Part shown: positions 8,830 to 24,282 of the stretch, piece after piece | Numbering within the stretch: the stretch's first letter is position 1 | How the letters are laid out: each line of letters opens with the position of its first letter | Source: a virus | Taxonomy: Duplodnaviria > Heunggongvirae > Uroviricota > Caudoviricetes | Length of the DNA: 47,797 nt | Virus record (IMG/VR): IMGVR_UViG_2571042438_000008 | Strand: one strand, 5' to 3' | The notes under the pieces: generated by a model | Databases searched by the model: none | The model's input: the letters and a program-made list of their open reading frames with translations, nothing else | What the model was told of the DNA's origin: nothing | Program-made: the position numbers and the translations under genes

Positions 8830-8892
8830 ACACAATGCGCAAAGTGTCATTTTGACACTTTGCGAGTGTTAATATTGTTCGAGGAGGATGCT

Positions 8893-9975: not shown

Positions 9976-11175
9976 TTATGGTCTGCTTTTCTGTGCCAGC
10001 TTATCAGCACATGTTTTTATCAGATCCTGTAGTGTCCTGGCTGGCAGGTTTGCATCCAGTACGCTGAGTATGCTGTTGTGATCTGCTTGGTCGACTACTT
10101 TGCCTGTCGGTGGTAGTAGCTTGAGCTGAGGATTCAGGTTTTCGTCAAAGCTGATAAGTGCTCTGGCGTTTCTGAGCAGATCAAGAAGTAAGGCTGATAT
10201 CACATTTTCCTGAGTCATTGCTGGCAGACTTAGCGCCGCTTTGGTTTTCCCTGTTGCCTTGTCAAACTCCTTGATTAGTTCCTTCCTGTAGTTCGGTTCC
10301 GTTAATAGCCGATTATGCTCTGTTGCCGCGCGGATAATCGTTTTTTCCTGGTATAGTCGTTTAGCCAGATCACGCTCGTACTGTGTTTTTAACACGCTGC
10401 TGATAGCGTTAAAGGCTTCAATGTAGGCCAGCTTGATATCTTTCACGCCTGGACCGTCGATGCTCTCCATGAGCAAGGTAAATCCGTCTTTTGTCATGCG
10501 ATAGATTGTTATTTCGCGGTCGCTTCCTTCCAGCGGTCGTTGCTCTTTAAAGAAGTGACGCGCCGCAGCCGTGCGAGGAATGCGTAGCGCATCGATGGCC
10601 ATAACGATGGAATTGTTTGTGGTGCTGAATGCCTGGGCAACATCGGCTGAGGTTGTGAGTGGCTCGTTGTTGCACACTTTAATGTAAAACATCGGTTTGG
10701 CGTTGAGCGTATCGACAACCTCACGAGCATTGCTTGGCGAGACGGTTACGGTCGCGGCCGTTTGCGCGTTCCGGCTGAAATAGCAGTCTTCCAGCCGTTC
10801 GAACACATCCCACGCTTGGTTAGTTTCAAGCATTTTGGCGTGACGTGCAGCCCCGCGTTCTGTCCAGAGAATGAGGGAGCGGGCTTTCGGGGAAATTTGT
10901 AACCCTCTTAAAGATGGTTGCACATTTTGTGAGTTACTTAAAGTAACCCGCAAATTTTGTGAGTGACTTAAAGTCACTCGCAAAGTTTTTAACTCATCGC
11001 CAGCCACTTTGAAAAAATGCTTTCCTTCAATAAAGCGGTTTGCGTTACGTGAGTAATTTTTTTTGATGTTATCAACGTCTGTGCCGTATAGCTTTGCCAG
11101 TAGTTCAGTAGTGATAACGGGGATCTGGTTATGCAGGATAGGCTGTAGGGTGTTAACGGTCGGAAGCGTTTTCAT
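9976..11175 (-). CDS. Antirepressor-like protein (ORF6N/KilA-N-like N-terminus plus Rha-like domain)
   Basis: N-terminal VITTELLAKLYGTDVDNIKKNYSRNANRFIEGKHFFKV and a central Rha-like segment, as recalled; 399 aa. Confidence 0.65.
   Translation of the reverse strand: MKTLPTVNTLQPILHNQIPVITTELLAKLYGTDVDNIKKNYSRNANRFIEGKHFFKVAGDELKTLRVTLSHSQNLRVTLSNSQNVQPSLRGLQISPKARSLILWTERGAARHAKMLETNQAWDVFERLEDCYFSRNAQTAATVTVSPSNAREVVDTLNAKPMFYIKVCNNEPLTTSADVAQAFSTTNNSIVMAIDALRIPRTAAARHFFKEQRPLEGSDREITIYRMTKDGFTLLMESIDGPGVKDIKLAYIEAFNAISSVLKTQYERDLAKRLYQEKTIIRAATEHNRLLTEPNYRKELIKEFDKATGKTKAALSLPAMTQENVISALLLDLLRNARALISFDENLNPQLKLLPPTGKVVDQADHNSILSVLDANLPARTLQDLIKTCADKLAQKSRP
10924..10983. repeat. Two tandem 30-bp repeats inside the antirepressor gene, each carrying a palindrome (GAGTTAC-TTAAA-GTAACCC; GAGTGAC-TTAAA-GTCACTC)
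   Basis: Units 10924-10953 and 10954-10983 differ at 3 positions, two of them compensatory for the inverted repeat; a degenerate third unit lies at ~10893-10923. Confidence 0.7.
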
Positions 11176-11399
11176 TTTGCACCTCCCATAACTACTTTGG
11201 TTACGAGGGAGATTTTTGCGTCAGAAACAGCGTTATCGTTGCTGGCGATGCGCATAGCTTCGCGCTCGATGATTTCAGTCAGGCGGAATTTATCGGCGTA
11301 TGAGGCTTTCTTGAGAAGGATCTTTACGAGGTTGACGTAATAGTCATGGGGTAGGTTTGTCATTGTGATATCTCCAGTATATGGAACTATCACCGCCAT
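11172..11399 (-). CDS. Small protein upstream of, and overlapping, the antirepressor gene
   Basis: 75-aa ORF with a 4-nt overlap to the antirepressor start. Confidence 0.4.
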   Translation of the reverse strand: MAVIVPYTGDITMTNLPHDYYVNLVKILLKKASYADKFRLTEIIEREAMRIASNDNAVSDAKISLVTKVVMGGAK

Positions 11400-11658
11400 T
11401 CGAGGCTAATCAAATGGTGGTGAGCCGTACAGGGTTAGCCTTACCGGACACAATGACGAACCGGCGCGGATTTCTCCGCCCCTGTACGACCCACCATAAT
11501 TTGGGCGTAACAGTGCTCTACGCATAAAAAAACCGCTAACGCGGTATGCGCCATCGTGTTATTCAGGAGGCTAATCCCGGCCGTAGATTTTGCTACGGCT
11601 CGGAAAGTGTCCACCAATGGCGCATTTATGTCAATACGGCGGGATTTTAACAGAGACA

Positions 11659-12739: not shown

Positions 12740-12782
12740 GTGTATCCCCTCTTATATAAATCTATAAAACTATAATTATATA

Positions 12783-13451: not shown

Positions 13452-13586
13452 GTGTTTGGTTATATAATTCTATAAATCTATATTTATAGAACGAGGTAAG
13501 CATAACCAACTTTTTGGCTGATGAAAAGCGTTTTATATAATTATATAAATCTATAATCATATAAGCGGGCGTTAGCCCGCTTGCAG

Positions 13587-13961
13587 TCAGAGGTCAGCTA
13601 TCGTTGATATCAGTTGATTTGCTAGCTGTCGCTGTTTACGTGAGAGGGTTAGAGCAGCTTCTGAGCGGTCGCTAAGAGGGGGGGTTTCATCAAGAATCAT
13701 GAGGCATACAGAAATAATAGCCCTGTTATATGCCATCAATGGCTGGCACAGCTTCGATACCGCTGGCACATCGTATTGTAAGGCCGTTTTGAGGCAGACT
13801 TTTTGTTCTGATGCCAGATGAAGGATAGATTCTATCCAGTCGATATCTTTCTCATTATCAATGATTTGGCATAACATACACTCAATCGCTATGTTCAACG
13901 CTTGGATTTCGATTCCAGCAGTGATCAGAGTTTCGTTTTTATTGGCTGTATGTAATTCCAT
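13587..13961 (-). CDS. Hypothetical protein encoded immediately downstream of the repressor gene
   Basis: 124-aa ORF; operator dyad 13997-14011 lies between it and cI; hairpin 13564-13581 after its stop. Confidence 0.45.
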   Translation of the reverse strand: MELHTANKNETLITAGIEIQALNIAIECMLCQIIDNEKDIDWIESILHLASEQKVCLKTALQYDVPAVSKLCQPLMAYNRAIISVCLMILDETPPLSDRSEAALTLSRKQRQLANQLISTIADL

Positions 13962-14829: not shown

Positions 14830-14865
14830 CTCACGATATGTGGTTTTAATACCACGTATCGTGGT
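14830..14865. promoter_or_regulatory. Two adjacent operator dyads (CTCACGATATGTGGT 14830-14844; ACCACGTATCGTGGT 14851-14865), cro-like proximal
   Basis: Tandem dyads with 21-bp centre spacing just upstream of the 14885 start. Confidence 0.6.
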
Positions 14866-17235: not shown

Positions 17236-17286
17236 AAGTGTCATTTTGAGCTGTTTTGATGGTGTGTAGACATCGGGAACATCGAA

Positions 17287-17404
17287 AATCTATAAATATA
17301 TAATTATAGATTTATATAAAAAGTGCTTTACAGGTGGGAAAAAATTTCCTATGGTTATACCCGAAACCGAGCGATACCCGCCCTGGTTAAACCGGAGAAA
17401 TCTG
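17287..17404 (+). promoter_or_regulatory. Promoter-leader cassette, copy 2 (dyad AAATCTATA-N12-TATAGATTT, -35 TTTACA 17327-17332, -10 TATGGT 17350-17355, conserved leader, GGAGA RBS)
   Basis: Near-identical to copies 1 and 3 over ~88 bp; 17-bp spacer. Confidence 0.55.
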
Positions 17405-23030: not shown

Positions 23031-23199
23031 TATATATTTCTATAATTATATAAATATATAGTTACAACATTCTATGCGCTTTTCTCATGGGCGCACGCAT
23101 CAACCATGTTTGTCTGATATGCCGCCGCGCCCAAAAATCCTGAATTTATTGGCTGGGATTTTCGTGCGCGGCGCCACACCAGACAAACAGATCAAATAT

Positions 23200-23583: not shown

Positions 23584-24171
23584 ATGGAGGCAATTGCATT
23601 GTTTAATCTGATTTATGCAGATCCCCCCTGGGAATACAAAGATAAGTGTAAGGATGGGAATCGTGGAGCTGGTTTTAAGTATCCAACGATGAAAGCTGAG
23701 GATATTGCTCGTATTCCTGTCTGGCAGCTTGCTAATCCTGAATCGTGTTTGTTGGCCATGTGGTGGGTTCCGACTCAGCCAGAAGAAGCGTTGCTGGTGG
23801 TGAAAGCATGGGGATTCAGGCTTATGACCATGAAGGGCTTCACATGGAACAAATGTGGTAGCCGACAACCAGATAAGCTGGTGATGGGGATGGGGCATAT
23901 GACTCGTGCAAACAGTGAAGATTGCTTGTTTGCGGTAAAAGGCAAATTGCCGACCCGCCTTGATGCGGGGATCATTCAGTCGTTTACATCGCCTCGTCTG
24001 GAGCATTCTCGGAAGCCTGATGTGGTTCGTGACAAGCTGGTAAGGCTGTTAGGTGATGTTCCTCGTATTGAGCTGTTTTCTCGCGGTGATTTACCTGATG
24101 GTTGGCATGGCTGGGGCAACCAGTGCAATGGAGGTATCCAGTTGCATGATGCTCTCTGGCAAGTGGCATAA
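23584..24171 (+). CDS. MT-A70-family N6-adenine methyltransferase
   Basis: DPPW motif (LIYADPPWEY) and family-typical N-terminal layout. Confidence 0.8.
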   Translation: MEAIALFNLIYADPPWEYKDKCKDGNRGAGFKYPTMKAEDIARIPVWQLANPESCLLAMWWVPTQPEEALLVVKAWGFRLMTMKGFTWNKCGSRQPDKLVMGMGHMTRANSEDCLFAVKGKLPTRLDAGIIQSFTSPRLEHSRKPDVVRDKLVRLLGDVPRIELFSRGDLPDGWHGWGNQCNGGIQLHDALWQVA

Positions 24172-24282
24172 AATTATATAATTATATATTTATATAAAAA
24201 GTGCTTTACAGGTGGGAAAAAATTTCCTATGGTTATACCCGAAACCGAGCGATACCCGCCCTGGTTAAACCGGAGAAATCTG
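24171..24282 (+). promoter_or_regulatory. Promoter-leader cassette, copy 3 (-35 TTTACA 24205-24210, -10 TATGGT 24228-24233, conserved leader, GGAGA RBS)
   Basis: Near-identical to copies 1 and 2. Confidence 0.55.

Follow-up and report, generated by a model that had tools for sequence, protein, structure and literature searches.

The ant locus

The window analysed here, by which we mean the whole 47,797-nt stretch of tailed-phage DNA (IMG/VR record IMGVR_UViG_2571042438_000008), carries an ant-type gene for a product of 399 aa at 9976..11175 on the minus strand, recognised from the list of open reading frames and from Pfam domain matches. The product matches the ORF6N domain (PF10543) over residues 12-115 with 72.2 bits (cut-off 27.8) and the Phage_pRha domain over residues 174-258 with 46.8 bits, and the gene is 100% identical over its length to that of the Escherichia coli phage-plasmid p142_C. 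Upstream of ant, on the same strand, lie a C4 antisense RNA at 11413-11501 (Rfam RF01695, 70.8 bits against a gathering score of 45), the feature by which a P1 immI-type operon is recognised, and an isrK-like element at 11526-11599 (Rfam, 68 bits, gathering score 50). The pair makes up the upstream regulatory RNAs of the ant operon, spanning 11413..11599, and Rfam finds the same arrangement in four homologous loci (L019, L084, L093 and L098). The Rfam model c4-a1b1 scored 36.6 bits at the operon, under its gathering score of 46.7. The start of ant is overlapped by a small ORF.

The ORF6N domain is encoded at 10831..11142 on the minus strand and has a putative MerR-like winged-HTH fold in the structure model. 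A first AF2 model built on a shallow alignment had a pLDDT of 40 and was unusable; in the model used here helices 23-30 and 34-43 have a pLDDT of 83-89 and form a confident HTH. The model is most similar to MerR-like winged-HTH domains solved on dyad DNA. A Foldseek search gave no significant match, and PDB sequence and profile searches found nothing. Residues 34-43 (VDNIKKNYSR), encoded at 11047..11076 on the minus strand, are the predicted recognition helix according to the structure model together with the covariation described below.

Three tandem 30-bp units occupy 10894-10983 within this ORF6N and Rha gene, each containing a dyad of about 27 bp in which 13-nt arms flank an A/T-rich centre (TRF: period 30 bp, 2.3 copies, 10920-10989). 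As dyads they belong to neither strand in particular, and they are named here B, A and '0'. Unit B (dyad at 10957..10983, centre 10970, inner half-site GTGAC) reads TTGCGAGTGACTT T AAGTCACTCACAA on the coding strand. It holds a perfect 9+1+9 palindrome at 10961-10979, its dyad reaches 18-nt arms with 89% complementarity, and it is among the three strongest dyads of the entire 47.8 kb. Unit A (10927..10953, centre 10940, inner half-site GTTAC) has 19-nt arms with 79% complementarity. Unit '0' (10897..10923, centre 10910, inner half-site CCATC) reads GTGCAACCATCTT T AAGAGGGTTACAA on the coding strand. The 19-mer and its near-matches together account for 3 sites in the window, where 0.02 would be expected.

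The original prediction described tandem palindromic 30-bp units carrying a matched T/G and A/C pair of substitutions, and the sequence is as it stated: the units at 10924-10953 and 10954-10983 differ at three positions. The third difference (C/T) also changes a dyad pair, from A.C (G.U on the mRNA strand) to Watson-Crick, and therefore all three differences between A and B fall on the dyad. The third unit, which had been called degenerate, is indeed present at 10894-10923, but it is a dyad as well, with arms almost wholly different yet complementary (AACCATC TTTAA GAGGGTT on the coding strand). The repeat had further been taken for a linker between two domains; it lies instead inside the ORF6N match, which spans profile positions 3-86 with 20 extra residues corresponding to the two additional units. 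In the structure model the repeat region is a loop left disordered (residues 73-91); the unit-B peptide is partly modelled as the end of helix 59-71, and the extra units are disordered.

Conservation of the dyad in the ORF6N family

About 130 distinct homologs have a dyad at the same position of the domain. They come from Proteobacteria, from phages of Firmicutes and from a distant Bacteroides-type ORF6N branch, and more than 100 different arm sequences occur among them, with the arms changing together. In the branch of this gene the dyad score is at least 6 in 88 of 99 unique loop regions (78 distinct sequences), and in the canonical ORF6N branch all 33 distinct sequences have the dyad, as do ORF6N genes of phages of Gram-positive bacteria. 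It had been proposed to ask whether homologs vary in repeat number and keep the symmetry beyond the codon constraint, and they do both. The number of units ranges from one to four, and synonymous recoding with the peptide fixed cuts the pairing from 10.1 to 5.7 of 12 pairs; the corresponding values in the canonical branch are 10.06 and 5.00 of 11. A selection-free best-dyad score gave 8.1 against 3.9 and 3.8 under the recoding nulls. Overall 89% of the pairs are paired, compared to 58% when shuffled (0/500) and 30-40% when slid, and double-sided changes are found at 12 of the 12 dyad pairs. On one phage-plasmid backbone the helix and the dyad have been swapped jointly as a cassette.

The exact canonical motif GGTCACAAWTTGTGACC was present in 118 stretches of viral contigs; permuted-stem controls gave 21 and 16. 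Roughly half of the stretches lie outside recognisable ORF6N ORFs, a sorting that is imperfect in that some sites counted as 'outside' encode the peptide NWSQFVTS. Of 62 contexts, 24 resemble terminators. Our search of the literature on ORF6N proteins and antirepressors found no account of an intragenic dyad.

Constraint on DNA or on RNA

The constraint on the dyad acts at the level of DNA, not of RNA. If the ant mRNA formed a hairpin here, for instance one that is cut by RNase III, blocks decay or makes translation pause between sub-domains, this would suit the stable predicted hairpins (median about -11 kcal/mol), the strong covariation that preserves pairing and the non-Watson-Crick pair of unit A, which is G.U on the mRNA strand. 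However, G.U is not in excess of A.C (37 against 33 in this branch; 7 against 6, with 18 mismatches of the class MM, in the canonical branch), and the mismatches show no wobble or strand bias and stand at the random or transition expectation. Sense and antisense hairpins are equally stable (dG -11.33 and -11.37), and in the canonical branch the antisense hairpin is slightly the better. The symmetry also often runs on into the would-be loop, where the k=2 pair is Watson-Crick in 33/33 canonical sequences and in 57/68 of this branch; the dyad centre is 94% A/T. Rfam searches of the region, the whole window and 10 homologous loci returned no family that covers the repeat (E<=10, noise only), and a hairpin in the mRNA leaves the covariation of helix and bases unexplained. 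We regard the RNA reading as very unlikely. The claim that the hairpins themselves are selected thus holds in so far as the symmetry is kept at the nucleic-acid level and fails for the hairpin as such, and a pause in translation caused by mRNA structure finds no support.

With the constraint placed on DNA, the dyad could in principle be a structure-specific element (cruciform or hairpin) or the site of some other protein, such as an origin, a pac element, a recombination hot spot or a terminator. Arms of 13 bp around an A/T-rich centre have dimensions fit for extruding a cruciform, sister plasmids show recombination and deletion breakpoints at the units, the canonical 17-mer is found also in intergenic and partly terminator-like contexts, and there is a precedent in lambda ori, whose tandem repeats lie within gene O (PMC4488673). 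On the other hand, no A/T-rich unwinding block adjoins the array (the lowest GC in 40-bp windows around it is 0.325-0.375) and the RepA-type replicon with its region is elsewhere, which speaks against the origin or pac-like role that had been suggested; nor did a promoter and terminator scan find a signal of either kind at the repeat, with no terminator-like site on either strand of 10890-10990. Moreover, the dyad stays with the ORF6N gene in many phyla, whether in a chromosomal prophage, a phage or a plasmid, and is therefore tied to the gene and not to the replicon. We consider an element of this kind improbable. A related candidate, the operator of the adjacent Cro-like regulator, was rejected: its palindrome at 8838-8864 and unit B have AGTG[T/A]C in common at matching positions, but the palindrome does not change between sister elements whose ant dyads are unrelated, and it shows no covariation with those dyads. 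Second matching dyads were not enriched in the flanks either (26/115 locus and dyad combinations, against a null of 0.25).

Covariation of the recognition helix and the dyad

Within the predicted recognition helix, residues 35-42 show covariation with the dyad bases at positions 4-8 counted from the centre. The columns with the highest mutual information among those not encoded by the dyad are D35, S42, K38, N36 and K39, and the columns between helix and dyad have lower values than those of the helix. K38 goes with G in 8/8 cases and R38 in 8/11, Q38 goes with C in 18/19, V39 with T in 8/9 and K39 with G in 7/8. Tree-based simulations gave 0/2000 for six helix-base couples, while the control residues 14, 58 and 60 were at the null and residue 46 was marginal for k5. 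The homologous helix positions of the canonical branch provide an independent replicate, in which Q is coupled to TCACA (22/22), E to TCGCA, R/K to TGC./TTCC and K at position 1 to GG. Out-of-sample predictions were right in phages of Clostridium, Bacillus, Thomasclavelia and Paenibacillus, with one miss. In the multi-unit genes exactly one unit fits the gene's own helix class in 12 of 12 testable cases. The covarying bases of the two arms (k=4-7) are separated, from centre to centre, by about 11 bp, a spacing consistent with a dimer on a palindromic operator.

Since the dyad bases fix the loop residues, the mutual information of the helix with the bases is indistinguishable from that with the loop residues, and one could argue that the helix coevolves with loop residues 67-71 through structural contact or a shared ligand surface, the DNA symmetry being incidental. 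The partly modelled helical end of the unit-B peptide agrees with this. The recoding tests, rejected nulls in both branches, had nevertheless largely refuted a protein-level cause, and synonymous third positions are paired with their partners in 83% of cases. One DNA motif is also read in two frames to give different peptides, the two branches differ in the codon phase of the dyad centre, and in the model the extra units come out disordered. Such a cause therefore has only a very slight chance of being right.

It could also be argued that the palindrome is functionless and perpetuates itself, in a loop whose peptide is free to vary, because template switching in replication copies one arm from the other and so reverts or transfers mutations. 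Several observations fit this quasi-palindrome model: the pattern is strand-symmetric and at the DNA level, with transition-type mismatches equal on both strands; the tandem copies all remain palindromic despite their redundancy; a one-arm intermediate (GAGTGAC...GTAACTC) occurs naturally in loci L091 and L092; and unit B looks like a 'perfected' unit A. However, the model fails to predict that the arm bases are followed by helix residues at a distance of 90 nt and not by the columns in between, and likewise the replicate in a distant branch and the single cognate unit per array. A functionless and deletion-prone palindrome should often vanish, yet the dyad is nearly universal across phyla. 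We find the model unlikely as an account of the dyad. Template switching may still be the mutational route to symmetric changes, even if the site is functional.

Dyads as probable operators of the encoded protein

Among the options first put forward, an embedded protein-binding site seems to fit best, and we propose that the 30-bp units are probably the embedded operator of the very protein that the gene encodes. In single-unit genes the IKKN helix looks up GTGAC, and unit B is accordingly the predicted cognate operator of this protein, which has the IKKN helix. The best reading of unit A (GTTAC) is the operator class of alleles with an IKVN helix, of the Stx-phage type, and that of unit '0' (CCATC) the class of IQNN-helix alleles. 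The matched T/G and A/C pair had been explained as compensatory change after duplication; it more likely splits two operator specificity classes, GTTAC and GTGAC, which throughout the family go with V and K, respectively, at helix residue 39.

ORF6N genes hold the dyad at one fixed position, in a loop that accepts nearly any peptide. We envisage a dimer of the MerR-like winged-HTH domain whose recognition helices (aa 34-43) would enter consecutive major grooves, some 11 bp from each other, each helix reading bases 4-8 on its side of the dyad centre. A homodimer requires two equivalent half-sites, so the arms would have to change jointly, and the differences between units would therefore look 'compensatory'. 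Units A and '0' may have been stacked beside B by recombination or slippage between the conserved flanks of the units. The most plausible consequence of binding would be negative autoregulation, with the bound site acting as an intragenic roadblock. As a second consequence, the specificity determinant and its target would surely be co-inherited in mosaic phage genomes, and heterologous units could permit cross-talk with Ant proteins of other prophages.

It is possible, though less likely than not, that ORF6N domains are portable specificity cassettes, a winged HTH with its own operator about 90 nt downstream and a simple residue-to-base code, and that operators of foreign alleles in the arrays build a cross-immunity network among the Ant genes of co-resident prophages. 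In that case the Pfam signature 'LRSQIVTS' would be a translated operator. Should the ORF6N domain indeed bind the dyad of its own gene, a family named only "antirepressor" or "ORF6N domain-containing", with over 8000 scoring proteins in a single search, would gain a DNA target and a recognition code (K/R-G, Q-C, V-T). It would also become clear why, in phage-plasmids and Stx phages, the middle of the domain behaves as a recombination cassette, and why the loop is so variable in length. Antirepressor genes that govern prophage induction, those of Stx-converting phages included, would be under an additional DNA-level control, and the family would demonstrate that a DNA site can lie behind a 'conserved protein motif'. 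For annotators it would be a caution that differences in repeat number alter operator content and not only linker length.

Comparison with known systems

Palindromic sites are bound by MerR-like winged-HTH proteins in several systems listed among the closest to this one, namely RacA on ram, the Par protein of pSK1 on its centromere, and TipAN, GlnR, TnrA and CueR on their operators. In Bacillus subtilis the conserved palindromic binding site parS reportedly lies within the parB/spo0J gene, which resembles ant in that a palindromic site is within the gene of its binder, in ant a predicted one. Unlike the ORF6N dyads, which diversify with the recognition helix, parS hardly varies, and its role is in chromosome segregation. 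The Roi protein of phage HK022, a member of the Bro-network encoded in the ant/roi region, reportedly binds a DNA site within the gene that encodes it. As we read its sequence, Roi combines a Rha-type N-terminus with a KilAC C-terminus and has no ORF6N, and an examination of the HK022 roi gene found no comparable dyad; Roi was therefore set aside as a homologous case and is an analogy of principle only.

The iterons of lambda have internal dyad symmetry and are located in a permissive inter-domain stretch of O, and in lambdoid phages the iteron type and the O N-terminus covary. Four 19-bp tandem repeats lie inside the coding sequence of gene O and are bound by the N-terminal half of the protein (PMC4488673). 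The ant array is alike in having tandem dyad-symmetric repeats inside the gene of a predicted DNA-binding protein. In contrast, lambda ori is a replication origin with an adjoining A/T-rich unwinding region, whereas ant is without such a block and the element has a separate RepA; the ant product is an ORF6N/Rha protein of the 'Bro-network'; and the units of the ant array come from different specificity classes, unlike the four equivalent sites of lambda. The array thus resembles O and its iterons in recognition logic and is not classed as an origin.

In Gifsy-1 the antirepressor AnrP is under IsrK-dependent control, in a study that does not mention intragenic dyads (PMC4825925). The ant locus is like P1 immI and the Gifsy-1 isrK-orf45-anrP region in its C4 and isrK-like RNAs directly upstream and in the small ORF that overlaps the start of ant. 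Those systems, however, work by way of RNA at the operon's 5' end, and the dyads would be a separate layer within the coding region.

The repeat array and its gene

Three 30-bp units stand head-to-tail at 10894-10983 of the window (TRF: period 30, 2.3 copies), inside a 399-aa antirepressor-type (ant) ORF (9976-11175, minus strand) with an ORF6N (aa 12-115) and a Phage_pRha domain (aa 174-258). On the coding strand, unit B (10954-10983) reads TTGCGAGTGACTTTAAGTCACTCACAAAAT and encodes LRVTLSHSQN, unit A (10924-10953) reads TTGCGGGTTACTTTAAGTAACTCACAAAAT and encodes LRVTLSNSQN, and the third unit, '0' (10894-10923), reads GTGCAACCATCTTTAAGAGGGTTACAAATT and encodes VQPSLRGLQI. Since the array falls within ORF6N aa 12-115, the repeat is not the linker between two domains that the original prediction took it for. 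Unit B holds a perfect 9+1+9 palindrome within a dyad reaching 18-nt arms and is among the three strongest dyads of the 47.8-kb window, where matches to the 19-mer number 3 against 0.02 expected. Units A and B differ at three positions, all of them within the dyad; two make up the matched substitution pair noticed in the original prediction, and the third turns G.U (mRNA strand) into A-U. The supposedly degenerate third unit also forms a dyad, in which almost every arm position differs in a complementary manner.

The window is an E. coli phage-plasmid of myovirus type, roughly 47 kb long; its ant gene is 100% identical to the copy in p142_C, an element with genes for RepA, ParA, terminase and tail sheath. 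Annotation of the gene is inconsistent between records despite identical sequence: for locus L001 (NZ_CP048340.1, 2699-3415; window 9976-11175) the sole CDS given by RefSeq/PLSDB is one of 717 bp, named 'Rha family transcriptional regulator', with its start downstream of the repeats, and in sister plasmids a full-length 'ORF6N domain-containing protein' is annotated.

Directly upstream of the ant operon, both on the minus strand, lie a C4 antisense RNA (11413-11501, 70.8 bits) and an isrK-like Hfq-binding RNA (11526-11599, 68 bits), resembling the upstream elements of P1 immI and the Gifsy-1 isrK-orf45-anrP operon (PMC4825925). The start of ant is overlapped by a 75-aa ORF (11172-11399, minus), placed like P1 icd or Gifsy-1 orf45. 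Loci from Stx phages, Salmonella, Serratia and E. whittamii likewise have the C4/isrK pair ahead of their ORF6N genes, and sRNA-Xcc1 takes its place in Pectobacterium and Symbiopectobacterium loci. Just upstream of the operon, on the opposite strand, is a full-length match to ryfA RNA (RF00126; 11971-12267, plus; 141.8 bits, gathering 80).

Conservation of the dyad and its symmetry

Homologues were collected from viral and genome collections (160 loci) and aligned codon-aware. The segment from "EGKHFFK..G.EL" to "LILWTERGAARHAKML" is hypervariable in both sequence and length, and 88 of its 99 unique versions carry a strong dyad, with 78 distinct dyad sequences. Repeat number varies among the homologues, as the original prediction had proposed to check, from 1 to 4 tandem dyads per gene: Stx-phage ant genes have 1, 2 or 3 units, and sister phage-plasmids also differ, pECO-b75 being without exactly unit A. 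In ORF6N antirepressor genes of Gram-positive phages (Clostridium, Lactococcus proPhi2, Thomasclavelia, Bacillus, Fusobacterium), the corresponding site also holds a dyad, its arms unrelated in sequence, and in four others it is weak. The canonical Bacteroides-type branch, only about 20-25% identical to the window's domain, was found via an approximate consensus query, and real matches only were analysed. The dyad is there in 33/33 distinct sequences (for example GTTTGAGGTCACAAATTGTGACCTCAAAC, encoding SLRSQIVTSN), and the ORF6N "LRSQIVTS" motif is thus a palindrome translated.

Dyad symmetry is no by-product of the encoded peptide. When the peptide was fixed and codons were redrawn from family usage, Watson-Crick pairs fell from 10.1 to 5.7 of 12 (p<=0.05 in 66 of 68 distinct dyads of the window's branch), so that dyad symmetry is kept beyond the codon constraint, a point that the original prediction had proposed to check; in the canonical branch they fell from 10.06 to 5.00 of 11 (p<=0.05 in 33/33). 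Complementarity holds for 83% of the pairs that include a third codon position. With no dyad preselected, the best one per loop region scored 8.1, against 3.9 after peptide-preserving recoding and 3.8 after codon shuffling. In a pair-count test 89% of cells were paired, compared with 58% when shuffled (0/500) and 30-40% with partners slid, and 12/12 pairs had changes on both sides. Translated in two frames, the DNA motif ATCACAAATTGTGAT yields KSQIVIT in one gene and LITNCDK in a second, and the dyad is centred on the second base of a codon in the window's branch and on the first in the canonical one. Homologues encoding the repeat by non-palindromic codons, the case named as refuting the original prediction, were not seen. 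Coevolution at the protein level alone, with the symmetry incidental, is weighed down by the recoding tests, the two-frame motif and the differing codon phase, and is highly improbable.

The constraint acts on DNA rather than RNA. In an RNA stem, G.U is allowed on the transcribed strand and A.C is not. These mismatches number 37 and 33 in the window's branch; the canonical branch has 7 G.U, 6 A.C and 18 others, near the 2:2:8 ratio expected at random. In stability, the sense and antisense hairpins are on a par (-11.33 vs -11.37 kcal/mol; wins 32 vs 31), complementarity often extends into the would-be loop, and A/T content is 94% at the dyad centre vs 52% in the arms. No Rfam family matches the repeat, and no terminator- or promoter-like signal was found at it. 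The mRNA hairpin of the original prediction is thus very unlikely, having neither an excess of G.U over A.C nor a strand difference in stability.

A second, weaker dyad (TTGAAGGAAAGCATTTTTTCAA, about 11008-11029, centre 11019) lies over the conserved 'EGKH[FY]F' codons; it also occurs in loci L171 and L164, scores 10.5 in phage JL22, and may simply be E/K versus F/L codon complementarity.

Covariation of helix and dyad

Listed side by side, the sequence of the predicted recognition helix (aa 34-43) tracks the dyad, partly combinatorially: I-K-V-N goes with the half-site GTTAC, I-K-K-N with GTGAC, I-Q-V-N with CTTAC and I-Q-Q-N with CTGAC. Among about 60 variable protein columns, leaving out residues encoded by the dyad itself, D35, S42, K38, N36 and K39 are most informative on dyad bases and form one helix face. 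Linkage by distance is not the cause, because the equally variable A58 and D60, between helix and dyad, are much less informative. In 47 distinct single-unit combinations, multi-unit genes being excluded, the base at position 7 from the dyad centre was G with K38 (8/8) and R38 (8/11) and C with Q38 (18/19), and position 5 was T with V39 (8/9), G with K39 (7/8) and C with D39 (3/3); exceptions exist, and the dyads were located computationally. The base character was evolved randomly on a local tree with the number of changes kept, and for six helix-base couples the observed information was attained in 0 of 2000 simulations; the tree was built from 42 columns and many sequences are related. Control residues 14, 58 and 60 were null-like, and residue 46 was marginal for position 5 (34/2000).

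The canonical branch repeats the covariation at homologous helix positions (MAFFT mapping). There, position 5 (=K39) is Q with TCACA (22/22), E with TCGCA, R with TGC[AC]A or TTCCA and K with TTCCA, and position 1 (=D35) is K with GG at positions 8 and 7. The rules also hold in unused Gram-positive genes (Q38-C in Clostridium and Bacillus, K38-G in Thomasclavelia, K39-G in Bacillus and Paenibacillus), with one miss, proPhi2. Between the arms, the covarying bases are separated by about 11 bp, equal to one turn of the DNA helix. The residue-base pairings are chemically ordinary for base readout, and together with this spacing and the A/T-rich centre they are usual for HTH dimers; similarity of the ORF6N model to MerR-like winged HTH structures is moderate.

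The reading adopted here, with moderate confidence, is that the ORF6N winged HTH binds, as a dimer, the dyad inside its own gene; we infer binding, stoichiometry and effect alike. Binding in a transcribed region would most plausibly result in negative autoregulation, and an embedded site would keep specificity determinant and target together in mosaic genomes. Template-switch correction of quasi-palindromes as the sole explanation is the main rival, though an unlikely one: it may be the route by which symmetric changes arise, but alone it leaves the helix-base code unaccounted for. That the dyad is a third-party or structure-specific element is quite unlikely.

Composition of the array

Half-site and helix classes were learned from single-unit genes only, and 12/12 testable multi-unit genes had exactly one unit of their own class, the remaining units being of other classes. 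By these classes, unit B (GTGAC) is the predicted cognate of the window's IKKN helix, unit A (GTTAC) falls into the IKVN class, which is frequent among Stx phages, and unit '0' (CCATC) into the IQNN class. The T/G and A/C pair, originally seen as compensatory, does leave each dyad two-fold symmetric, but is more likely the difference between two putative operator classes.

Where sister phage-plasmids are nearly identical in the flanks, the stretch of about residues 28-97, with helix and dyad, swaps as a cassette. The cassette (10890-11095) is sharply bounded against homologous loci (L172-L180), whose gene flanks are 96-100% identical, and the middle of the domain has at least five unrelated alleles among sister phage-plasmids and Yersinia phage vB_YpM_41. 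Since the units differ in class, and recombination breakpoints and a one-unit deletion coincide with units, the array is best read as putative operators stacked by recombination or slippage between conserved unit flanks. Foreign units may permit cross-talk between prophages.

Other palindromes and repeats

A perfect 12+3+12 palindrome (CGCAAAGTGTCATTTTGACACTTTGCG, 8838-8864) stands 30 nt ahead of a small Cro/Xre-like HTH ORF (ATG 8894) and overlaps a TTGACA hexamer. It has the half-site AGTG[T/A]C in common with unit B, in the same register, GTGTC being the putative operator class of IRKN-type ORF6N proteins. Because sister elements whose ant alleles are unrelated carry the palindrome unchanged, it is probably another regulator's operator. 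A divergent 218-aa HTH (CI-like) gene is separated from the rightward early genes by a gap with a strong palindrome (about 14833-14862, ACGATATGTGGTTTTAATACCACGTATCGT), which is likely to be the main immunity operator of the phage-plasmid.

Short arrays of 8-bp A/T-only units (TATAAAAC, TTATATAA, AAATATAT, TATATAAT) recur over about 11 kb (12755-12775, 13463-13618, 17286-17320, 23031-23064 and 24168-24197), several doubling as strong dyads (17300, 23046, 24186), and may be iteron-like or nucleoid-protein sites. The neighbours of a tRNA gene within the phage-plasmid (23200-23272, plus; Rfam 67 bits) are the array at 23031-23064 and, at about 23498, a strong hairpin.

The exact canonical core GGTCACAAWTTGTGACC was found in 118 viral stretches of IMG/VR (L265-L382), against 21 and 16 for two control palindromes with permuted stems. 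Roughly half do not fall in a recognisable ORF6N ORF, and A-tract/T-tract flanks resembling bidirectional terminators are seen in 24 of 62 distinct contexts; these stretches may be additional targets of ORF6N proteins, remnants of genes or chance matches.

Comparison with known systems

No description of the intragenic dyad was found in the literature searched on ORF6N. Roi is reported to bind within roi, and parS lies within spo0J, the same logic as is proposed here for the ORF6N dyad. The origin role offered in the original prediction is unlikely, because no A/T-rich block was found beside the array and RepA is located elsewhere. The ORF6N element thus differs from an origin and its protein is unrelated to O; the proposed logic is the same as in lambda, where the iterons lie inside gene O (PMC4488673).
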